Source of the DNA: Novosphingobium sp.
GTDB lineage: Bacteria > Pseudomonadota > Alphaproteobacteria > Sphingomonadales > Sphingomonadaceae
DNA length: 64,000 bases
Reading direction: 5' to 3'
Assembly (NCBI RefSeq): GCF_031417815.1
Contig: NZ_JANOWI010000035.1
Span: 10,447 to 74,446, forward strand
Shown: positions 8,752 through 19,826 of the stretch, piece after piece
Position numbering within the stretch: position 1 is the first letter of the stretch
Layout of the letters: the number at the start of each line of letters is the position of its first letter
The notes under the pieces: generated by a model
Database searches by the model: none
What the model saw: only the letters and a program-made list of their open reading frames with translations
What the model was told of the DNA's origin: nothing
Translations under genes and position numbers: made by a program

Positions 8752-8770
8752 TTAATTGGCCATTTACCAT
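8752..8770 (+). promoter_or_regulatory. Candidate CtrA-like box upstream of the DUF11 cluster
   Basis: TTAA-ttggcca-TTTACCAT = TTAA-N7-TTAAC with one mismatch; an extra TTAA at 8739-8742. Confidence 0.35.
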
Positions 8771-8791
8771 TCGCTGTCAGTAGAACTGCGG

Positions 8792-10774
8792 ATGGGATCG
8801 CTAGGCGAACATAAACCCGGTCGGCTGCTGGGCCTGAAGCGGATGGCGTTTGCGCTGTTTGCGCTGATGGGGCTTGCCTTGAGCGCTAGCCAGCCGGCGT
8901 CTGCGCAGACCGTCACCCGCTATACCAACAATACCGCCAGCGCGACGAACGGGATCAACAACACTGCAACGCCGTGCTCCAACACACTGAAGCGCACCTT
9001 TGCCGTCGGCACGAGCTACATCGTAAGCGATGTGAACATCGGTGTGCTGCTAACGCACACGGCGCGCGGCGATCTTACGATCACGCTGGTTTCACCAAGC
9101 GGAACGCGCGTGGTGGTTTCAAACCAGGTCGGCGGGACGAAAAACAATTTCAACGCCTTGCTTGATGACTCTGCCGGTACGGCGATCACCGCCTATACCT
9201 TCAACGACACCATCACCGCAGTGCCGCCCTACAACCAGACCCTGCGCCCCAGCAACGCGCTGAGCGTTTTCAACGGCGAACAGGCAGCTGGCACCTGGAC
9301 GCTGGAACTGTGCGATTCGGTTTCGGCGGACAGCGGCACCTTCGACCAGGCCGATCTCTATCTGACCGCGGCCGCGACCAATTATGCTGATCTCTCGCTG
9401 GCGCAGAGCGTGAGTTCAACCACGCCCAACGACCGCACCACCATCACTTACACGCTAACCGTAGCCAATGCCGCAACATCGCCGCAAACCGCCACGGGCG
9501 TGGTGGTGCGCGATCTGCTGCCCAGCGGGGTGATCTTCATCAGCGCCAGCGGCGCGGGAACTTACAATTCGGCAACCGGTGACTGGGCGGTCGGCACATT
9601 GGCTCCTGGCGCCAATGCAGCCCTGACGATCACGGCGACCGTGGCCGCGGGCGACACGGAAAGCGTAGCCAACGCCGCCGAAATCACGGCTTCATCGCAC
9701 ACCGATCCCGATTCAACCCCTAACAACGGCGTGACCGGTGAAGACGACTACGCCAGCACGACGTTCACCGTAGTGGTCAGCCGCAGCGCCGGAACCGCGC
9801 CCACATTGACCTGCTCGGCCGGCACCGGGCAGTTCGATTGGGACAGCCAGGCCTGGACCGCAGGCGCAACATCAGGAAGCTACACCGTCACCGGGGTCGG
9901 AACGGTCGGCTTTGCGATTACCAATCCAAACGGCATATTCCTGAACAACGCGACGTACGGCGGGCAATCACCGGCCAAGCAGACCGCGGTTACAGGCGGG
10001 CTCGGCACAGCGCAGAACTCGCTCGAGCAACTGGTCGACTTGAACAACCAAAGCGCCACGGTTGATACCACGATCACGCTGGGAACCGCAGTTCCAGGCG
10101 CGCAGTTCACGATCTTCGACGTCGATTTCAACACCAACCAGTTTGCCGACAAGGTCACTGTGACTGGCTACCTCAATGGAAATGCAGTCACACCAACGCT
10201 CACCAACGGCACCGCCAATTGGGTCTCAGGCAACAGCGCCTACGGCGATGCCTTATCGAGTGACATCCAGGCCAATGGCAACGTTGTGGTCACCTTCAGC
10301 AGCGCGATCGACAAGATTGTGATCAACTATGGTAACCACAGTTATGCACCAACCAACCCTGGCCAGCAGGGTGTGGCGCTGCACGATATTACCTTCTGCA
10401 AGCCGGTGACCAGCATCAGCGTGACCAAGGTCAGTTCGGTGCTGAACGATCCTGTCAACGGCACCACCAATCCCAAGGCGATCCCCGGCGCGGTGGTCGA
10501 ATATTGCATTCTGGTATCCAATACCGGCACCAATACCCTGAGCAATATCGCTGCGACAGATGCCCTGCCAGCAAACTTCACCTTTACCGCGGGGACGATG
10601 ACATCGGGCATTAGCTGCGCGGCCGCGACCACGGCCGAGGATGATAACAATACCGGAACCGACGAGTCCGATCCTTTTGGCGCGGCAATCAGCGGCACGA
10701 GTTTGACCGCAAGCGCCGCCTCGCTCAGTGCCTCAAGCGGTTTCGCGCTGAAATTTCGCGGCACGATAAACTAG
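8792..10774 (+). CDS. Secreted multi-domain protein: proprotein-convertase P-domain, complete DUF11 domain, central beta domain, C-terminal truncated DUF11 (putative tip adhesin)
   Basis: Signal peptide ..SASQPASA-Q (start 8792 or 8843); P-domain motif THTARGDLTITLVSPSG..GTWTLELCD; DUF11 ADLSLAQ..TYTLTVAN..VVVRDLLP..ESVANAAEIT; C-terminal SVTK..PGAVVEYCILVSN..ATDALP..LKFRGTIN*. Confidence 0.8.
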   Translation: MGSLGEHKPGRLLGLKRMAFALFALMGLALSASQPASAQTVTRYTNNTASATNGINNTATPCSNTLKRTFAVGTSYIVSDVNIGVLLTHTARGDLTITLVSPSGTRVVVSNQVGGTKNNFNALLDDSAGTAITAYTFNDTITAVPPYNQTLRPSNALSVFNGEQAAGTWTLELCDSVSADSGTFDQADLYLTAAATNYADLSLAQSVSSTTPNDRTTITYTLTVANAATSPQTATGVVVRDLLPSGVIFISASGAGTYNSATGDWAVGTLAPGANAALTITATVAAGDTESVANAAEITASSHTDPDSTPNNGVTGEDDYASTTFTVVVSRSAGTAPTLTCSAGTGQFDWDSQAWTAGATSGSYTVTGVGTVGFAITNPNGIFLNNATYGGQSPAKQTAVTGGLGTAQNSLEQLVDLNNQSATVDTTITLGTAVPGAQFTIFDVDFNTNQFADKVTVTGYLNGNAVTPTLTNGTANWVSGNSAYGDALSSDIQANGNVVVTFSSAIDKIVINYGNHSYAPTNPGQQGVALHDITFCKPVTSISVTKVSSVLNDPVNGTTNPKAIPGAVVEYCILVSNTGTNTLSNIAATDALPANFTFTAGTMTSGISCAAATTAEDDNNTGTDESDPFGAAISGTSLTASAASLSASSGFALKFRGTIN

Positions 10775-10953: not shown

Positions 10954-11940
10954 ATGAAAAACCAAATCGCCCTGCGTGCCGCATCCGGCACCGTCGCCTT
11001 CGTCTCGGCCTGCATGGTCGTCTTGCCGGGCACCGCCCATGCCAGCGGCGTTGCCGCCGGGACGTTGATCCAGAACACGGCTTCGGCCACCTACACCTCT
11101 GGCAGTGCCAGCGGCACGGTCAGTTCGAACACCGTCACCGTCAAGGTCGACGAGCTGCTCGACGTGGCTGTGGCCGGGCTGACGAGCACGCCTGCCGTCG
11201 CCGGATCGAGCAACGTGGTGCTGATCTATTCGGTGACCAATACCGGCAACGGCCCCGAGGCCTTCGACATCGCCGTGAATGCGGCAGTGGCGGGGAACGA
11301 TTTCGACGCCGTGGTCCAGCAGGTCGTGATCGACAGCAACGGCAACGGAACTTACGACCCCGGCATCGATACGGTGCTGGCTACCGGATCACCCACGCCG
11401 GCGATCGCTCCCGATGCCGCGCTGGCGGTGTTCGTGATTGTCAGCCTGCCCGGCACGGCGGCCGATGGCGACACCAGCCAGGTCCAGCTGACCGCGACCT
11501 CAACCACCGGATCGGGCACACCCGGCACAGTCTTTGCCGGCCAGGGCGATGGCGGCGGCGATGCCGTGGTCGGATCCTCAACGGCGACGCAATCGGACAA
11601 CGACGCGCTGATCGCCAGTCTGGCCAGCGTTGCGCTGACCAAGGCGGCCAGCATCGTCGATCCTTTCGGCGGCAGCCAGCCGGTTCCCGGCGCGGTGGTT
11701 ACCTACACGCTTACCGCCACGGTCAGCGGCACCGGTCAGGCCGATAGCCTGCACATCACCGACGTGATCCCGGCAGGGACCGCCTATCAGGCCGGCACCC
11801 TGACGCTCGACAGCGCAGCGCTGAGCGATGCGGCCGATACCGATGCCGGTGAAGCATCGCCGAGCGGGATCGACGTTAACCTTGGCACCGTAGCCGGGGG
11901 CAGCACCAAAACCGTCAAATTCAACGTCAAGATCAACTGA
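10954..11940 (+). CDS. Secreted DUF11-family protein, putative pilin A
   Basis: Signal peptide ending AHA; mature N-terminus SGVAAGTLIQNTASATY..SSNTVTVKV; C-terminal LTKAAS..PGAVVTYTL..ITDVIP..VKFNVKIN*. Confidence 0.8.
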   Translation: MKNQIALRAASGTVAFVSACMVVLPGTAHASGVAAGTLIQNTASATYTSGSASGTVSSNTVTVKVDELLDVAVAGLTSTPAVAGSSNVVLIYSVTNTGNGPEAFDIAVNAAVAGNDFDAVVQQVVIDSNGNGTYDPGIDTVLATGSPTPAIAPDAALAVFVIVSLPGTAADGDTSQVQLTATSTTGSGTPGTVFAGQGDGGGDAVVGSSTATQSDNDALIASLASVALTKAASIVDPFGGSQPVPGAVVTYTLTATVSGTGQADSLHITDVIPAGTAYQAGTLTLDSAALSDAADTDAGEASPSGIDVNLGTVAGGSTKTVKFNVKIN

Positions 11941-11951
11941 GGTAACACGCC

Positions 11952-12425
11952 ATGAAGCGCATCCTTATCGCCACCCTTGGCTCCGTGCTGATTGCCACGG
12001 CACCCGCCGTGGCCGCCGCCCAGACCAATCCTGTCGAGCTGATTGGCGATGTGAAAGTCGACAAGGTAGTTGTTGAAAACGGGAAAGAAAAGCACGTTCT
12101 GGTCGAACCGGGCGTGGTTGTCCCGGGCGATGCACTGCTGTTTACGACGACGTACCGCAATGCCGGGGCCACCCCGATCAAAGACTTCGTGGTCACCAAC
12201 CCGCTGCCCGATGCCGTCCAGCTTGCGCCGCAGGGCGCTGATCAGCTGGTCGTTTCGGTCGATGGCGGCAAGACTTTTGGCAAGCTGACGACACGGCGCG
12301 TTACCGGCAGCGATGGGGCGCCGCGCGCCGCGGTGGAAGCCGATGTAACGCACATTCGCTGGGTCCTGCCGGTGCTGGCGCCAGGCGCGTCGGGCGCACT
12401 TTCCTATCACGCCATCGTCCGCTGA
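11952..12425 (+). CDS. Small secreted single DUF11-like domain protein (putative chaperone/cap)
   Basis: RBS GAGG; signal peptide; VVPGDALLFTTTYRNAG..FVVTNPLP..IRWVLPVLAPGASGALSYHAIVR*. Confidence 0.8.
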   Translation: MKRILIATLGSVLIATAPAVAAAQTNPVELIGDVKVDKVVVENGKEKHVLVEPGVVVPGDALLFTTTYRNAGATPIKDFVVTNPLPDAVQLAPQGADQLVVSVDGGKTFGKLTTRRVTGSDGAPRAAVEADVTHIRWVLPVLAPGASGALSYHAIVR

Positions 12426-12496: not shown

Positions 12497-13552
12497 ATGA
12501 ACAGGGTCAACAGATTGCTTGGAACGGCGGGCGCCGCGGCGCTCATTGTCACAAGTGCCAGTCCTGCTCTGGCAGGCGGGACCACTGCGGGAAGCACGAT
12601 CACCAACACGGTGTCCGTGAATTACCAGGTGGGCGGCGTTGCACAGACCGCAACGGGCGCTTCGAATACCTTTACGGTCGACCGCAAGATCAACCTGACG
12701 GTTGCCGAAGTGGGCACCACCACCACGCAGGTGTCACCGGGACAACTGGCCGCGGTGACCACCTTCACGGTGACCAACACTTCGAACGCCGTGCTCGATT
12801 TCGCGCTGGCCGCTGCGCAGCAGAGCGCCGGACCGGGTGCGCATTCGAACACCGACAACTTCGACGTTTCGAACGTCAAGGTCTATGTCGATAGCAACCT
12901 TAACGGCAGCTACGATGCTGGCACTGACCTTGAAGTCAGCTATCTTGACGAACTGGCAGCAGACGCCAGCAAGACTGTCTTCGTGGTTGCCGATGTTCCG
13001 CTTGGCCGCCTCTCCGGCGATGTTGCCGCAGTTACGCTGACCGCAACCGGGCGCGAAGGCGGCGGCGCGGCTGCGCAGGGCGCGGCACTGTCCGAAACCA
13101 CCGGAGCCAATACCTCCGGCATGGATACTGTCTATGCTGATGGCGCTGGCGCAACCGACGGTTCGCGCGATGCGGCCTACTCGGCCAAGGATGACTATAC
13201 CGTCCTTGCAGCGGCGCTGACGATCAGCAAGCTCAGCCGGGTGATCTCGGATCCGTTTAACGGCACCACCAATCCGAAGGCGATCCCGGGCGCGACGATC
13301 GAATACTGCATCGTCGTGAGCAACGCGGCCGGCAGTGCGACGGCGAACACCGTGGCCATCTCTGACCCGCTGCCCAGCACGGTCACCTACGATGGCGGCG
13401 GTGTGTTCATCAACGGCACGGTCACTTCGGGCCTCTGCAACACCGATGGCACCAATGGCGGTTCGCATGCTGCGGGCACGGTCAGCGGAACGCTTTCGAG
13501 CGTCGCGGCGAGCGAAACCAAAACGCTGCGCTTCCGCGCGACGATCAACTGA
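12497..13552 (+). CDS. Secreted DUF11-family protein, putative major pilin B
   Basis: RBS GAGGA; signal peptide ending PALA; mature N-terminus GGTTAGSTITNTVSVNY..ASNTFTV; C-terminal TISKLS..PGATIEYCIVVSN..ISDPLP..LRFRATIN*. Confidence 0.82.
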   Translation: MNRVNRLLGTAGAAALIVTSASPALAGGTTAGSTITNTVSVNYQVGGVAQTATGASNTFTVDRKINLTVAEVGTTTTQVSPGQLAAVTTFTVTNTSNAVLDFALAAAQQSAGPGAHSNTDNFDVSNVKVYVDSNLNGSYDAGTDLEVSYLDELAADASKTVFVVADVPLGRLSGDVAAVTLTATGREGGGAAAQGAALSETTGANTSGMDTVYADGAGATDGSRDAAYSAKDDYTVLAAALTISKLSRVISDPFNGTTNPKAIPGATIEYCIVVSNAAGSATANTVAISDPLPSTVTYDGGGVFINGTVTSGLCNTDGTNGGSHAAGTVSGTLSSVAASETKTLRFRATIN

Positions 13553-13561
13553 ACGAGGTGC

Positions 13562-13593
13562 GGGGCGGCATGACCTGAACGGTCTGCCGCCCC
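13562..13593 (+). terminator. GC-rich stem-loop between pilin B and the large outer-membrane protein (attenuator or mRNA stabiliser; no U-tract)
   Basis: GGGGCGGCA-t-GACC-tgaac-GGTC-TGCCGCCCC. Confidence 0.5.
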
Positions 13594-13615
13594 CTACCGC
13601 AACACCCAAGGGTCG

Positions 13616-16600
13616 ATGGGCGTTTTCCGGCAAATCGGTGTACTCATAGCAGCGCTGGCAGCGCTGCTTTTGTGCGTGCCGTTTGCCCAGGCGCAAACCA
13701 TCACCAATACCGCCGCCGCGCAGTGGAGCGAAGGCGGCCAGAATTTCACCACGCGTTCGAACATGGTCTCGATCACGCTGGCCCAGTCGCAGACGCTGCT
13801 GACCACTTACAAGCCGCTAACTGGCGGGCAGAACTATGGTTACACTGCGGCGAGCTGCGGCGGCAGCACCGTCATCGTACCGGGCGCAACTGCCACTGGC
13901 ACCTCGATCGCGTCGCTGACCCAGACCAGCACGATCCGCGTTGGCGAAGCGCTGTTCTTCAGCCTTTCAGCGCCTTCGGCCAATCTTGACCCGGCGGCGG
14001 TCGACACCCTGGTCGCGACCATCACCACCCAAAGCGGCGACCGCGAAGTGCTGACGATCCGCGAAACCGCGATCAACAGCGGCATGTTCATGGGTGCGAT
14101 CCCGACCCGCGCGATCCCGCCGCAGCCGGTGCAGGGTGATTGCCGCCTCAGCCTGCGTCAGGGCGAAGACATCACCGTCGCTGTTGCCGCAACGGCCAGC
14201 GGCTCGGCCATCGCCACAGCGCAAGTCGACGTACTGGCCGATCCTTATGGCATGGTCTTCGACAGCGAAGACGGACAGCCGGTGAGCGGCGCCCGCGTGA
14301 CTTTGGTCGACGCGCTGACCGGCGCGCCGGCCCGCGTTTTTGCCGATGACGGTGTGACGCCGTGGCCCTCTACCGTCATTTCAGGCCAACCGATTACCGA
14401 TGGGGCCGGCAATGTCTATCCGATGGCACCGGGCGAATACCGCTTTCCGCTGGTTGGCCTGGGCCGTTATCGCCTGGTGGTCGAACCGGCCGCGCCTTAT
14501 ACCGCGCCATCGGCCAAGACCCCGGCCCAGCTGGCGGCGCTGCTTCGTCCCGATGGCAATACTTTCGAGATTGTCGACGCATCGTTCGGGGGAACACTGC
14601 AATTGGCAGGTGCCACCGCGGTGCGGGTTGACATTCCGCTCGATCATCCGCCGTTGGGCGTCACCGTTACCAAGACGGCATCGCGCGCTGTGGCCTTGCC
14701 GGGCGATGTGGTGTTTTACACCGTCACGATCCGCAATCCCGATACGATCAGCGCCAAGCGTACCGTTACCCTGGCCGACAACCCATCGCCCACGCTGCGG
14801 TTACGGCCGGATTCGGTGCGGGTTGACGGCGTTGCCAACCCCGGTGCGGTACAAGCCTCGCCAGATGGCCGCACGCTGACCTTGCAACTTGGCGATATCG
14901 CTGCCGGCGATTCGCGCACCGTCAACTATGCCATGACCATCCGCCCCGATGCCCCAGCCGGCACCGCGCTTAACAAGGCAACCGCTACCGATGCCGCCGG
15001 TCGCAGCGCCACCGCCGGTGCCACGGTGCGGATCGAACGGCAGGATATTGCCGCACGGGTAACGATCATCGGCCGGATTACCGACGGCGGATGCGCGGCC
15101 GATGGCCGGCACAACCCGGTGCAGGGTGTGCGCGTCGTGCTGGAAGACGGTAGCTTCGCCATCACCGATGCCGATGGCCGTTATCACTTCGAAGGCGTTG
15201 TGCCGGGCACGCACGTTGTCCAGGCGCAGCAAAGCACGCTGCCGCAGGGCGGACGCTTTGCCGATTGCAGCCGCTCCACCCGCAGCGCAGGCAGCGCCAG
15301 CTCGCGCTTCGTGATGGCCCGCGGCGGCATGCTGGTGGCCGCGGATTTCAGTGCGAACCTTTCTCATGAAGGCAGCGTAACTGCATCAAAAGCTGCAGTT
15401 AAAATCGCATACGACCCGATTGATGGTTTGCCGATTGCCAATCCAGTTGGTGCAGCTCCGGCACTTGCACCGCGTACCATTCAGGATCCCGCCTCGCTTG
15501 AGCGCGAGCAGCGCCTTTCCGCTGGTGCGGAAACCGATTGGTTCGCCAAGGGTGATGGCCCCAATGCCTTCCTGTTCCCTGCGCCCGATCACAACCCGCG
15601 TGCGCCGGCGATCCGCGTGGTGATCCGCCACCGCGTCGGCCAGACCGTTGATCTGACGATCGATGGCAAACCGGTCGAAAAGCTGTCTTACGAAGGCGCG
15701 CGCCCGGCACCGGGCGGGGGCTATGCTGTTTCGATCTGGCGCGGCATTCCGCTGCCGGGCGAGCAGACCCGCCTGACGGCTGTGGTACGCGATGCAAACG
15801 GCGTCGAAGTTTCGCGGCTGACCCGCACAGTCTATTATTCGGCCAGCCCGGCGCGGATCGAATTCGTGCCCGCTCAAAGCAGCCTGGTGGCCGATGGCAA
15901 GACCCGGCCGGTGCTGGCGCTGCGTATTCTCGATCACAACGGCCGCCCGGTCCATGCCGGCCTGTCTGGTGAGTTTTCGCTCTCCGATCCTTACGAAAGC
16001 GCAGATGCGCTCGATGCGATGCAGCAGCGTCAGCTGGTCGGGGCGGGGCGTCAGGCGCCGCGCTGGCTGGTCAAGGGCGATGACGGCATGGCCTATGTCG
16101 AGCTTGCCCCGACCATGGTCAGCGGCAAGCTCAAGATGGAATTCAACTTTTCCGATGGCCAGCAGCGCCGCCGCCAGGAACTGGAGACCTGGATTGCGCC
16201 GGGCGACCAGCCGTGGACCGTGGTCGGCCTGATCGAAGGCACCGTCGGCAAGCAGACTGTGGCCAGCCAGATGGAGCGTACCGGCCAGTTTGACAGCGAT
16301 CTGGGCGACCGCGCCCGCACCGCCTTTTACGTCAAGGGACCAGTGGGCGAAGGCTTCCTGGTCACTGGCAGCTATGACAGCGCCAAGCAGCGCGACGATG
16401 CGGTGCTGCTCGGCACGATTGATCCGCGGTCCTACTACACCGTCTTCGCCGACGGTTCGGACCGCCGCTTCGATGCTGCCAGCCGCGACAAGTTCTACGT
16501 CCGGGTTGAGAACCGCGGCTTCTATGCACTGTATGGCGATGCCACCAGCGGGTTCGACCAGACGCAGCTTGGCCGCTATCAACGCACCGCGACCGGCTTC

Positions 16601-18727
16601 AAGACCGAGTTCGAAGCGGGCGGCGTGCACCTGCAGGGCTTTGCCGCCAAGGTTTCCAGCACGCATCGCCGTGACGAATACCAGGGCGGCGGGATCTCGG
16701 GCCCCTACCGCCTGTCGAGCCGCGCGATCGTGCCGGGCAGCGAAGTGGTGGCGATCGAAGTGCGCGACCGGTTCCGCAGTGAAGTGATCGTCTCGCGCCG
16801 CACGCTGGTGCGCTATGTCGATTACGATGTGGATCTGCTTTCTGGCACGATCACCTTCAAGGAACCGATCCTCAGCCGCGACGACCAGCTCAACCCGCAG
16901 TTCATCGTGATGGACTACGAAGTTGATGGAGGCGCGGGCGGCGGTGAATGGAATGGCGGGCTGCGCGCCGATGCTACTTTCGCCGATGGCGCGGTACGTC
17001 TGGGCGCCACCGCGATCACCGACACCAGCGCCAATGGCGGTGCCCGCACCGATCTGGTCGCGGTCGATCTGCGCGCCAAACTTGACCGGAACACCGAACT
17101 GCGCGCCGAAGCCGCACGCAGCTACAACGATGGCCGCCACGCCGATGCCTGGCTGGTCGAACTGGAGCACCATTCAGGCAAGGTCGATGTACTCGCCTAT
17201 GTCCGCCAGGCTGCAGACGATTTTGGGCTTGGGCAAAGCAGCGGAGCCGAACTTGGCCGCCGCAAGGTCGGCGTCGACGCCCGCTATCGCATTACCCCGG
17301 ACCTGTCGGTCGCAACCAGCGGCTGGGTTGATGACAGCCTGACCGACGGTTCGCGCCGCATAGCGGTGCAGACCGGGCTCACCTGGCACACCCAGGACGC
17401 CGACGCGCGGGTCGGCGTCACACACTTCGACGATACGCTGGCCGACGGCACCAAGACCAACGCAACGGCGCTCGATGCCTCGGTTGCTCGCCGCTTTTTC
17501 GACAACAAGCTTGAGCTAAGTGTAGCCACCAGTTTTGCCATCGGCGGCTCTGGTTCAATTGACTTGCCCGAACGCCATCGTTTTTCGGCGCGCTATGCCG
17601 TGACGTCCGACATCAAGGTCGTCGGCACCTATGAGATCGCGTTCGGCGACAATATCGATGCGCGCACCGGCCGGATCGGCATCGAAGCCACACCGTGGAC
17701 CGGCGGCCGGTTGACCACCGCAGTGGGCCAGCAGCAGATCGGCGAGCTAGGCAAACGCAGCTTCGCCAATTTCGGGCTGACCCAGTCGATCGCGGTGACC
17801 AAGAACCTCACGCTCGATGCCACGCTCGATTCGAGCAAGACCATCGGCGGGTTCGATCCGGCGCGCCTGATCAATCCCGATCACCCCGCATCAAGCGGCG
17901 GAACGATCGGTGAAAACGGAACTATCGCCGAAGACTACACCGCGATCACGCTGGGCGGTTCGTGGCGTCAGGAACTGTGGAACGCCACTGTGCGCGGCGA
18001 ATGGCGCGAAGGCGATCTGGCCACCCGCAAGGGCGCGACCTTTGGTGTGATCCGCCAGCTGGGCGATGGCCAGATGGTCGGCGGCGGCTTCACCTGGACC
18101 CGCGCCGATGCCGCGGCCGGACTTATGAGCCAGGTCATGGAAGGCTCGCTTGCCTTGGCCAGCCGCCCAGCCGAGAGCGATTTCGCGTTCCTGGGCAAGT
18201 TGCAGTTCCGCTCGGACATCGTCCACGGCGCTGTCGCCGGTGAGGCTGGCCCGGCCGGGCGCGGCGCGCTGCTGGTTGATGGCGATGCCCGTTCCGACCG
18301 GATCGTGTTCAGCCTTTCGGGCGATTGGACGCCGCGCCGCCGGGTTGATGGCGAATGGGTGCAGCGCGACAATCTGGGCTTCTTCATCGCTGCGCGGCAC
18401 AATTTCGATGCTTTCCAGCAATACGATATCGCCGGCACCACTGTGCTGGGCGGGCTCGACGCGCGTTTGGGGCTGGGCGATCACCTCGAACTGGGCGGTA
18501 CCGGCACGGTCCGTTACAGCCTGACCGACAAGACCGCGATCTTCTCCTATGGTCCGCAGATCGGCCTTTCGCCAACCAAAGACGTGCTGCTGCTGGTCGG
18601 CTACAACGTTACCGGGTTCCGCGATCCCGATTTCTCGGGCGCGCGCCAGACCGACGAAGGCGTCTATGCCACGATCAAGATCAAGTTTGATGCCGAGAGC
18701 TTCGGCTTCCTCGGGCTGGGCCAATAA
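13616..18727 (+). CDS. 1703-aa outer-membrane protein: N-terminal Ig/SdrD-B-like and complete DUF11 domains, C-terminal predicted beta-barrel (putative anchor/export platform)
   Basis: Signal peptide ending FAQA; mature N-terminus QTITNTAAAQW..RSNMVSITL; DPYGMVFDSEDGQPVSGARVTL; VTKTAS..PGDVVFYTVTIRN..AGTALNKATAT; ITDADGRYHFEGVVPG; C-terminal half rich in amphipathic beta-strands ending in aromatic residues. Confidence 0.8.
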   Translation: MGVFRQIGVLIAALAALLLCVPFAQAQTITNTAAAQWSEGGQNFTTRSNMVSITLAQSQTLLTTYKPLTGGQNYGYTAASCGGSTVIVPGATATGTSIASLTQTSTIRVGEALFFSLSAPSANLDPAAVDTLVATITTQSGDREVLTIRETAINSGMFMGAIPTRAIPPQPVQGDCRLSLRQGEDITVAVAATASGSAIATAQVDVLADPYGMVFDSEDGQPVSGARVTLVDALTGAPARVFADDGVTPWPSTVISGQPITDGAGNVYPMAPGEYRFPLVGLGRYRLVVEPAAPYTAPSAKTPAQLAALLRPDGNTFEIVDASFGGTLQLAGATAVRVDIPLDHPPLGVTVTKTASRAVALPGDVVFYTVTIRNPDTISAKRTVTLADNPSPTLRLRPDSVRVDGVANPGAVQASPDGRTLTLQLGDIAAGDSRTVNYAMTIRPDAPAGTALNKATATDAAGRSATAGATVRIERQDIAARVTIIGRITDGGCAADGRHNPVQGVRVVLEDGSFAITDADGRYHFEGVVPGTHVVQAQQSTLPQGGRFADCSRSTRSAGSASSRFVMARGGMLVAADFSANLSHEGSVTASKAAVKIAYDPIDGLPIANPVGAAPALAPRTIQDPASLEREQRLSAGAETDWFAKGDGPNAFLFPAPDHNPRAPAIRVVIRHRVGQTVDLTIDGKPVEKLSYEGARPAPGGGYAVSIWRGIPLPGEQTRLTAVVRDANGVEVSRLTRTVYYSASPARIEFVPAQSSLVADGKTRPVLALRILDHNGRPVHAGLSGEFSLSDPYESADALDAMQQRQLVGAGRQAPRWLVKGDDGMAYVELAPTMVSGKLKMEFNFSDGQQRRRQELETWIAPGDQPWTVVGLIEGTVGKQTVASQMERTGQFDSDLGDRARTAFYVKGPVGEGFLVTGSYDSAKQRDDAVLLGTIDPRSYYTVFADGSDRRFDAASRDKFYVRVENRGFYALYGDATSGFDQTQLGRYQRTATGFKTEFEAGGVHLQGFAAKVSSTHRRDEYQGGGISGPYRLSSRAIVPGSEVVAIEVRDRFRSEVIVSRRTLVRYVDYDVDLLSGTITFKEPILSRDDQLNPQFIVMDYEVDGGAGGGEWNGGLRADATFADGAVRLGATAITDTSANGGARTDLVAVDLRAKLDRNTELRAEAARSYNDGRHADAWLVELEHHSGKVDVLAYVRQAADDFGLGQSSGAELGRRKVGVDARYRITPDLSVATSGWVDDSLTDGSRRIAVQTGLTWHTQDADARVGVTHFDDTLADGTKTNATALDASVARRFFDNKLELSVATSFAIGGSGSIDLPERHRFSARYAVTSDIKVVGTYEIAFGDNIDARTGRIGIEATPWTGGRLTTAVGQQQIGELGKRSFANFGLTQSIAVTKNLTLDATLDSSKTIGGFDPARLINPDHPASSGGTIGENGTIAEDYTAITLGGSWRQELWNATVRGEWREGDLATRKGATFGVIRQLGDGQMVGGGFTWTRADAAAGLMSQVMEGSLALASRPAESDFAFLGKLQFRSDIVHGAVAGEAGPAGRGALLVDGDARSDRIVFSLSGDWTPRRRVDGEWVQRDNLGFFIAARHNFDAFQQYDIAGTTVLGGLDARLGLGDHLELGGTGTVRYSLTDKTAIFSYGPQIGLSPTKDVLLLVGYNVTGFRDPDFSGARQTDEGVYATIKIKFDAESFGFLGLGQ

Positions 18728-19736: not shown

Positions 19737-19826
19737 TGGCGGACAGGGTGGGATTCGAACCCACGGTGAGCTTTCACCCACGGCGGTTTTCAAGACCGCT
19801 GCCTTAAACCACTCGGCCACCTGTCC
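19737..19826 (-). tRNA. tRNA-Ser (anticodon TGA)
   Basis: Reverse complement GGACAGGTGGCCGAGTGGTTTAAGGCAGCGGTCTTGAAAACCGCCGTGGGTGAAAGCTCACCGTGGGTTCGAATCCCACCCTGTCCGCCA: anticodon loop CTTGAAA, long variable arm, T-loop GTTCGAATC, encoded CCA. Confidence 0.97.

Follow-up and report, generated by a model that had tools for sequence, protein, structure and literature searches.

How a bacterium roots a fibre of separately encoded immunoglobulin (Ig)-like subunits in its outer membrane, and by which route those subunits leave the cell, is the question raised by a five-gene cluster of Novosphingobium sp. (Sphingomonadaceae; RefSeq assembly GCF_031417815.1). The window analyzed here is a stretch of 64,000 nucleotides (contig NZ_JANOWI010000035.1, positions 10,447 to 74,446 of the forward strand), and the gene under study, P0001, is the last of five closely spaced co-directional genes in the order P0003, P0004, P0005, P0006, and P0001. 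We propose that P0001 is the cell-proximal (basal) subunit of a fibre and also its portal, combined in one chain, and we consider the chances of this combined model to be about even. Within it, the role of anchor is well supported, and that of export pore is a reasonable inference, reached by argument.

The N-terminus of P0001 resembles the N-termini of the pilins encoded just upstream, and the following features, given in window coordinates, are needed to judge this.

10954-11940, forward strand: P0004, a pilin with a donor N-terminus and a truncated C-terminal DUF11 domain
12497-13552, forward strand: P0006, a pilin of 351 aa that carries a donor N-terminus of its own and, at the C-terminus, a truncated DUF11 domain ending ...RFRATIN
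13616-18727, forward strand: P0001, an open reading frame with an ATG start, 1,703 aa
13616-13696, forward strand: signal peptide of P0001, residues 1-27, MGVFRQIGVLIAALAALLLCVPFAQAQ; Sec-type with an AxA site, cleavage between AQA and Q, without a conserved lipobox
13697-13780, forward strand: donor hairpin of P0001, residues 28-55, mature start TITNTAAAQWSEGGQNFTTRSNMVSITL; TITNTAAAQWSE-GG-QNFTTRSNMVSITL, with N31 as the candidate isopeptide Asn

The start codon of P0001 is unambiguous, because two in-frame TGA codons lie immediately 5' of it and leave no upstream in-frame alternative. In orthologues, the h-region of the signal peptide and an AQ/T junction are kept, and Cys is not conserved. 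The donor hairpin is a conserved 28-aa segment of the form TITNTA...SNxVxI: the pattern [IV]xNxA...W...SNxV follows the signal peptide in 29 of the 29 Sphingomonadales orthologues examined, with the N invariant, and a short form of the motif recurs in 217 of the 237 long homologues, a set that includes many only 30-37% identical in the barrel. P0004 and P0006 begin like P0001, and their C-terminal DUF11 domains stop at position 84 of the 114-position profile (...KFNVKIN and ...RFRATIN, each followed by the stop codon). MAFFT aligned the N-termini of the giant proteins onto those of the pilins, and when P0001 residues 1-345 were compared with P0006 by BLASTP, the only similarity was donor to donor. 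These data suggest that the two strands missing from the pilins match the two-strand N-terminal segment of P0001, and that the hairpin is the counterpart of strands beta8 and beta9 in a CLIPPER/DUF11 domain. P0006 is the likely acceptor for this hairpin.

A split-domain test was carried out by running the Pfam DUF11 profile on the P0006 acceptor with and without P0001 residues 27-58, and with 11 control segments.

P0006 acceptor alone: 29.6 bits, profile positions 9-84 of 114
P0006 acceptor plus P0001 residues 27-58: 35.9 bits, profile positions 9-108
P0006 acceptor plus the reversed segment: 31.0 bits, profile positions 9-95
P0006 acceptor plus 7 shuffles: 28.8-33.4 bits, ends at 85-103
P0006 acceptor plus 3 other P0001 segments: 30.0-32.5 bits, ends at 86-96

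No control reached the score of the real donor (a gain of 6.3 bits, compared with -0.8 to +3.8 bits for the 11 controls), and the N-terminus of P0001 thereby supplied profile positions that are absent from the truncated domain of P0006. AlphaFold2 was also run on the natural read-through product of the two genes under translation table 4 (P0006 residues 62-351, the 22-aa spacer, the signal peptide, and P0001 residues 28-64), by using an alignment of pilins trimmed of their donors, plus nine paired rows of other genomes that are equally natural in-frame read-throughs. The resulting model had a predicted local distance difference test score (pLDDT) of 85 and a predicted template modelling score (pTM) of 0.71, and in it the donor was modelled as a pair of strands (12 and 14 residues) at pLDDT 66-73, versus 39-60 for the spacer. 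The donor-like N-terminus that a first-pass annotation, made from the sequence and its open reading frames, had described is thus borne out. That annotation also had the barrel tethering the fibre via its donor strands; the pilin-type donor segment agrees with this, and the plural was wrong, as there is one N-terminal hairpin per chain.

A separate observation concerns the spacer itself. It spans 13553-13615 (63 nt), P0006 and P0001 are in the same frame, and two TGA codons are the only stops between them. This in-frame arrangement occurs in 10 of 29 orthologous loci compared, which is close to the one-in-three chance expectation, and the shared frame gives no sign of biological meaning.

The other end of P0001 is of a different kind, and its features are as follows.

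15593-16201, forward strand: two pre-barrel beta-sandwich domains, residues 660-745 and 746-862; AlphaFold2 pLDDT 84-92
16217-16684, forward strand: N-proximal part of the predicted barrel, residues 868-1023, with about 6-7 strands (AlphaFold2, DSSP)
16685-16894, forward strand: inserted small beta domain, residues 1024-1093, GGGISGPYRLSS...DYDVDLLSGTITF...; AlphaFold2 pLDDT 80-88
16895-18688, forward strand: main part of the predicted barrel, residues 1094-1691, with 32 long amphipathic strands ending ...GVYATIKIKF (AlphaFold2, DSSP)
18689-18727, forward strand: C-terminal tail and stop, DAESFGFLGLGQ, 12 aa, a predicted helix

Residues 660-1703 have no significant Pfam match, no Pfam model exists for the 825-residue module, and the insert at 1024-1093 likewise has no Pfam match; the second pre-barrel domain is Big_1/Invasin_D3-like over residues 745-787, with both matches below threshold (Invasin_D3, E 4.5e-4; Big_1, E 8.4e-3). 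AlphaFold2, run on residues 655-1703 with a 59-row alignment of 29-88% identity, gave a model with a mean pLDDT of 80.2 and a pTM of 0.76. In this model, residues 868-1691 (about 825) form about 40 strands of 10-17 residues each, broken once by the 1024-1093 domain, and the family-averaged hydropathy of the same region shows strand faces that alternate between hydrophobic and polar. The first-pass annotation had noted further Ig-like segments and roughly 800 C-terminal residues of amphipathic strands, from which it proposed a large membrane beta-barrel. The two pre-barrel sandwiches and the predicted barrel agree with all of this.

In a Foldseek search of the PDB, the 655-1703 model gave 146 matches at E<=1e-3. 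Among the 50 top matches listed, all were outer-membrane barrels except two low-TM matches to ApoB100, and the leaders were SlpA (30 strands, E 4.6e-10), MtrB (26 strands), FepA and FhuA (22 strands), SprA (36 strands, E 1.9e-6), and LptD (26 strands). TM-scores were 0.12-0.31, and identity was 7-10% for the giant barrels. As predicted, the fold class of the C-terminal module is clear, an outer-membrane barrel, and none of the structures matched is a close relative; the outcome that the first-pass annotation had named as speaking against it, a C-terminal region not predicted to be a membrane barrel, did not arise.

The topology was read from the lengths of every inter-strand connection in 345 homologues. 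Along residues 1094-1691, one alternate set of connections measures 2-6 aa and is near-invariant (standard deviation [sd] 0.0-0.8), with a variable 14-aa turn at 1571-1586 as the sole exception; nearly all connections of the other set are long or variable loops of up to 66 residues, with sd up to 7. This pattern appears to be the canonical one of tight periplasmic turns and variable surface loops. When the C-terminus is taken as periplasmic, strand 1094-1104 starts at the periplasmic face. In residues 868-1023, the connections of one face are tight turns, and those of the other are long excursions whose lengths (21, 38, and 13 aa) are conserved; on our reading, the tight turns point outward and the excursions toward the periplasm. 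The connection that holds the insert measures 69-72 aa in 345 of 345 homologues (sd 0.2), and the insert itself, which may act as a plug or gate, probably lies on the periplasmic (or lumenal) side.

Because the strand count should be even and the N-terminus periplasmic, the barrel is read as having about 38 strands, with 36-40 possible, an indirect reading from DSSP and connection lengths. By our own calculation from standard barrel geometry, 38 strands correspond to a C-alpha diameter near 7 nm. The predicted lumen would be wide enough for folded Ig-like domains and would require gating. Mean-field direct coupling analysis of the 345 homologues (effective number of sequences about 250) was too noisy to address barrel closure: its top signals were indel-edge artefacts, and adjacent strands reached only z 1.6-5.6. 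The predicted barrel has the features of one that BAM (beta-barrel assembly machinery) inserts, namely a signal peptide, amphipathic strands, alternation of turns and loops, and, for the terminal aromatic beta-signal, a last strand ...IKIKF followed by the 12-aa tail. A 2026 preprint names the 36-strand SprA as the largest barrel known and points out that AlphaFold DB omits proteins of more than 1,280 residues. The P0001 barrel may be larger than that of SprA, and the family has escaped structure surveys because of this omission.

Between donor and barrel lies a stalk, the parts of which are listed below.

13790-14239, forward strand: Domain 1, about residues 59-208, containing GDREVLTIRETAINSGMFMG; family consensus GDxExLxLxETGxxTGxF
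14240-14650, forward strand: first CarboxypepD_reg/SdrD_B-like Ig domain, residues 209-345; PF13620 E 1.5e-6, 28.9 bits, below the 32.3 cut-off
14654-15037, forward strand: complete CLIPPER/DUF11 domain, residues 347-474, with the triad K353, D388, and N453
15056-15352, forward strand: second CarboxypepD_reg/SdrD_B-like Ig domain, residues 481-579; PF13620 33.0 bits versus 32.3, SdrD_B 24.8 bits
15353-15592, forward strand: linker rich in Ala and Pro, residues 580-659, recognized by composition

Domain 1 is the region that the first-pass annotation had called a DREVLTIRETAINSGMFMG domain; it is conserved family-wide and has no Pfam match at E<=10. Both carboxypeptidase-regulatory-like Ig domains named there were recovered, the first below threshold (with the family consensus DPFGxVFDSxTGxPVxGAxVT) and the second above it, and so was the complete DUF11 domain. 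The last of these scored 26.0 bits with PF01345 over residues 350-459 (cut-off 24.6) and 32 with TIGR04226 (cut-off 30), and 33.4 bits over profile positions 2-99 when searched as a fragment, so that a score above the gathering threshold is joined by a Lys-Asp-Asn triad. The triad spacings are 35 and 100 residues, compared with 33 and 91 in PDB entry 9IFR (K715, D748, and N806); the bond itself is a prediction. PDB relatives of this domain are LPXTG pilin domains, with the common motif xTDNPS. As the first-pass annotation had stated, a Pfam search found no OmpA_C-like domain (PF00691) in P0001, though OmpA peptidoglycan-binding domains are present in 4 of 11 distant homologues. They sit there at the position of the P0001 linker, between the second CarboxypepD_reg domain and the pre-barrel domains, and number 1-3 among three homologues examined. 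Because of this position, the middle of the chain should be periplasmic in those homologues.

The family was delineated by a search with the 844 C-terminal residues of P0001 (860-1703). Clustered at 50% identity, the matches comprise 2,580 representatives, of which 1,011 reach E<=1e-30. Complete homologues, up to about 2,770 residues long, have the module at the C-terminus, and the N-to-C architecture of P0001 is conserved family-wide, recurring in hundreds of homologues, far beyond chance. P0001 itself is single-copy in its genome, and its nearest relatives are from Novosphingobium and other Sphingomonadales. The remaining two members of the cluster are the following.

8756-10774, forward strand: P0003, tip-like, 672 aa, with a proprotein-convertase P-domain and two DUF11 domains (Pfam/NCBIfam) and an acceptor end only
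11952-12425, forward strand: P0005, a small single-domain protein ending ...YHAIVR

Of 301 genomes sampled from the phylum, 27 have the barrel module. In all 67 loci with enough upstream DNA, one to three pilin genes with both donor and acceptor stand directly upstream of the giant gene (median gap 28 nt), and the same arrangement was seen in genomes whose barrel is only 31-35% identical. One distant genome (L094) has the order tip, pilin, small protein, pilin, and giant protein, the same as in Sphingomonadales loci. Pfam and NCBIfam searches of all five proteins of the cluster reported only DUF11-type and P-domain matches, and no chaperone or usher gene.

Three genomes have barrel proteins of 1,093-1,432 aa (L097 in G140, L098 in G135, and L099 in G123) that have only residues of about 866-1173 in common with P0001. 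Each of these genes follows a large SdrD_B/SpaA/DUF11 adhesin gene; the adhesin at L099 ends in an OmpA domain, and the barrel protein at L098 has a Big_1-like start and an end ...FLRLRFKFDEDLF as in the P0001 family. Judged by sequence, these loci look like a "split" relative of the fused architecture, and stalk and barrel can thus be encoded separately. As side observations on distribution, a genome of the same family as that of the window (G188) has two full-length paralogues (C1:270856-273372 and C1:469721-472243), with barrels 57% and 55% identical to that of P0001, so that some genomes run two such systems. Barrel orthologues in gammaproteobacterial metagenome-assembled genomes, those of Woeseia/Woeseiaceae (L027 and L044) and of a "Marinomonas" (L019) are 54-55% identical, as close as many from Sphingomonadales, and reflect either horizontal transfer or mis-binned contigs.

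In the model that we favor, P0001 would be exported by Sec, and its barrel inserted by BAM. The hairpin, with N31, would complete the last pilin's C-terminal domain (that of P0006, for instance, with K245 and D290), and a Lys-Asn isopeptide bond would possibly lock the joint. Polarity would then run from P0003 (acceptor only) through P0004 and P0006 (donor and acceptor) to P0001 (donor only, fused to the barrel). Tip, pilins, and P0001 would form one N-to-C collinear chain from tip to membrane, ending in a membrane barrel, like a single fibrillar adhesin cut into pieces. Because the donor belongs to the same chain as a barrel that most probably has its start in the periplasm, and the middle of the chain is periplasmic in the homologues with OmpA domains, a fibre on the surface would need a polypeptide to cross the barrel lumen, be it the Ig stalk of P0001 itself or the proximal pilins. 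This requirement makes a portal role likely; passage of free pilins is a separate matter. The pore role is suggested because P0001 is the sole conserved outer-membrane component, its predicted lumen is very wide, and homologues carry OmpA domains. The 1024-1093 insert and the pre-barrel domains would gate the wide lumen, and the energy would be drawn from folding and cross-linking, in the manner of chaperone-usher pili.

Several points weigh against this model. The gain in the profile test is modest, about 5 bits above controls; the pLDDT of the donor in the fusion is only moderate; and Foldseek on the fusion model gave generic tandem-Ig matches only, which are uninformative on docking. The strand parse gives 39 unless the short first strand (868-878) is kept out of the barrel. 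Finally, two secretins and one usher are encoded elsewhere in the genome, and the pilins could leave by another route.

That last point leads to the strongest alternative, in which P0001 is anchor and nucleator only: it would export its own stalk through the barrel and display the hairpin, and the pilins and tip would leave elsewhere (e.g., by type II secretion, for which the two secretin genes may be relevant) and polymerize outside, as curli do on CsgB or TasA on TapA. The donor, barrel, and synteny evidence fits this explanation equally well, and the donor/acceptor polarity would let the fibre lengthen away from the cell no less than from its base. However, about 38 strands and a conserved insert would be needless for self-export, for which autotransporters use 12 strands; the barrel occurs in just the 27 sampled genomes mentioned above, always with its pilin genes; and free extracellular subunits would diffuse away. 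We therefore regard this alternative as unlikely, while taking it seriously.

More doubtful still, and in our view improbable, is an envelope tether or lattice, in which the Ig and DUF11 proteins would stay periplasmic and link the barrel to peptidoglycan or to each other, as SlpA/OmpM do, with the barrel serving as a large channel. The chlamydial DUF11 protein OmcB is envelope-associated, the top Foldseek match of P0001 is the 30-strand tether/porin SlpA, and OmpA peptidoglycan-binding domains are present in homologues. P0001 itself is without such a domain, however, and P0003, a 672-aa protein that bears a P-domain and has an acceptor end but no donor, is built as distal adhesins typically are. 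A polymerizing pilin pair and a cap-like small protein would also be hard to fit in a periplasm roughly 25 nm deep. A nutrient-uptake channel like a TonB-dependent receptor, merely adjoining adhesin genes, is very improbable: one homologue (P0125) is named "TonB-dependent receptor" in NCBI and such receptors are among the Foldseek matches, but the pilin-type N-terminus and the strict synteny would be left unexplained.

Membership of known families was examined as well. As a TonB-dependent receptor, P0001 is effectively refuted, with no match to Plug (PF07715) or TonB_dep_Rec (PF00593) and TM-scores of 0.13-0.15; the NCBI name has no domain backing. The first-pass annotation had seen no resemblance to a PapC usher, and rightly so: PF00577 matched neither P0001 (E<=0.01) nor its fragments (E<=10), while the same profile found a true usher elsewhere in the genome (G000:C44, 47.8 bits). 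FimD (9fy9_D) ranked 47 in Foldseek (E 4.3e-5, TM 0.15-0.19), no better than unrelated barrels. No Autotransporter or IAT_beta match was obtained, and about 40 strands stand against the 12 of autotransporters and inverse autotransporters. The match to the SprA-type translocon of type IX secretion was generic (6h3j_A, E 1.9e-6, query TM-score 0.18, 7% identity), and the cluster holds DUF11-type proteins only; for SlpA, there is neither an S-layer homology (SLH) domain nor homology by sequence search. Thus, only the internal CLIPPER domain of P0001 belongs to a named family, and the usher, autotransporter, TonB-dependent receptor, and SprA tests fail.

Likenesses to known systems are nevertheless instructive. 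Chaperone-usher pili (PapC/FimD and PapH) share with the proposed fibre Ig-like subunits, N-terminal donor-strand complementation, a donor-less tip, a donor-bearing last subunit, and assembly without ATP at the outer membrane. The usher is a barrel that has periplasmic domains and a small beta domain set among its early strands (strands 6 and 7 flank the usher plug; the P0001 insert comes after about strand 6-7). By contrast, P0001 has no sequence relation to ushers, about 38 predicted strands versus 24, and no PapD-like chaperone gene beside it; the donated element would be a two-strand hairpin of a CnaA-like CLIPPER domain that may be covalently locked, and a single polypeptide makes up both the barrel and the last subunit. 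Autotransporters (type Va) and intimin/invasin (type Ve) likewise combine an Ig stalk and a barrel in one chain and are expected to pass a segment through their own lumen, and a Big_1/Invasin_D3-like domain adjoins the barrel in P0001 as in inverse autotransporters; they differ in having 12 strands, and no known autotransporter is lengthened by subunits from other genes. The SprA barrel conducts proteins and depends on a plug and a cap protein, and MtrB is a barrel that sheathes another membrane-spanning protein. Sequence searches detected no homology of P0001 to SprA, SlpA, LptD, or MtrB, and P0001 has no SLH domain or type IX secretion context.

On the side of the fibre, the CLIPPER/DUF11 domain of fibrillar adhesins (PDB 9IFR; Costa et al. 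2025, PMC12617251) has domain and isopeptide bond within one chain. In P0001, residues 347-474 are a full member with the triad, and the hairpin would be the last two strands including the Asn; here, two gene products apparently share one domain. Fibres in which donor strands are combined with isopeptide bonds between subunits have been described for Sulfolobus threads (PMC9715654) and for BsaA of Clostridium perfringens (PMC11580942). There, as proposed here, an N-terminal segment inserts into the sheet of a neighbor and is fixed by an isopeptide bond ("exchange and lock"); those fibres belong to an archaeon and to a Gram-positive bacterium, both without an outer membrane, have other folds (that of BsaA is TasA-like), and have no barrel subunit. 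The type V pili of Bacteroidota (FimA/Mfa1, with the anchors FimB/Mfa2) polymerize by strand exchange and have a dedicated outer-membrane anchor subunit. Their anchor, however, is a lipoprotein pilin and not a barrel, proteolytic priming is needed, and the folds are unrelated.

Whether P0001 represents a new class of outer-membrane platform, in which a barrel of about 38 strands, more than the 36 of SprA, would be the last subunit of its own pilus, enclose its own stalk or the proximal pilins in its lumen, and be joined to the pilus by an isopeptide-fixed hairpin, is a bolder question. Such a covalent pilus, free of sortase, chaperone, and usher and widespread in Pseudomonadota, is a tentative proposal to which we give somewhat less than even chances. 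In literature searches on DUF11 and CLIPPER domains in connection with pili, donor strands, intermolecular bonds, or the outer membrane, we found no description of the combination or of the barrel family. If true, it would be a further widespread way for Gram-negative bacteria to build and root fibres, non-homologous to the chaperone-usher, type IV, type V, and curli systems. It would merge donor-strand complementation, self-catalyzed isopeptide locking (a natural tag/catcher), and the fusion of stalk and barrel, which have so far been known separately. The barrel would be among the largest single-chain beta-barrels, or the largest, which raises the questions of how BAM folds it and what keeps so wide a pore closed. 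As a tool for protein ligation, the split CLIPPER pair could also be of use.

The surroundings of the operon are ordinary. It is flanked by lpdA on one side and by housekeeping genes on the other (a small membrane protein, tRNA-Ser, a lytic transglycosylase, rlpA, dacC, tmk, holB, and metG), and the GC content is uniform at about 0.62-0.65. A scan for promoters and terminators gave nothing above shuffled expectation. About 1 kb separates the operon from the tRNA-Ser (anticodon TGA; 19737-19826, reverse strand) downstream of it. An integrase and a compositional break are both absent, and hence there is no hint of an island.

Two orphan genes elsewhere in the same genome are related to members of the cluster. 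One encodes a secreted protein of 646 aa (G000 C15:62920-64860, reverse strand) that ends ...SFAVLYRVTVR and has its last 130 residues 41% identical to the acceptor end of P0003; on this similarity, it could be an alternative tip for the same fibre. The other encodes a 191-aa paralogue of P0005 (35% identity; G000 C43:103375-103950, reverse strand), the end of which, ...ITYSAIVR, closely resembles that of P0005.

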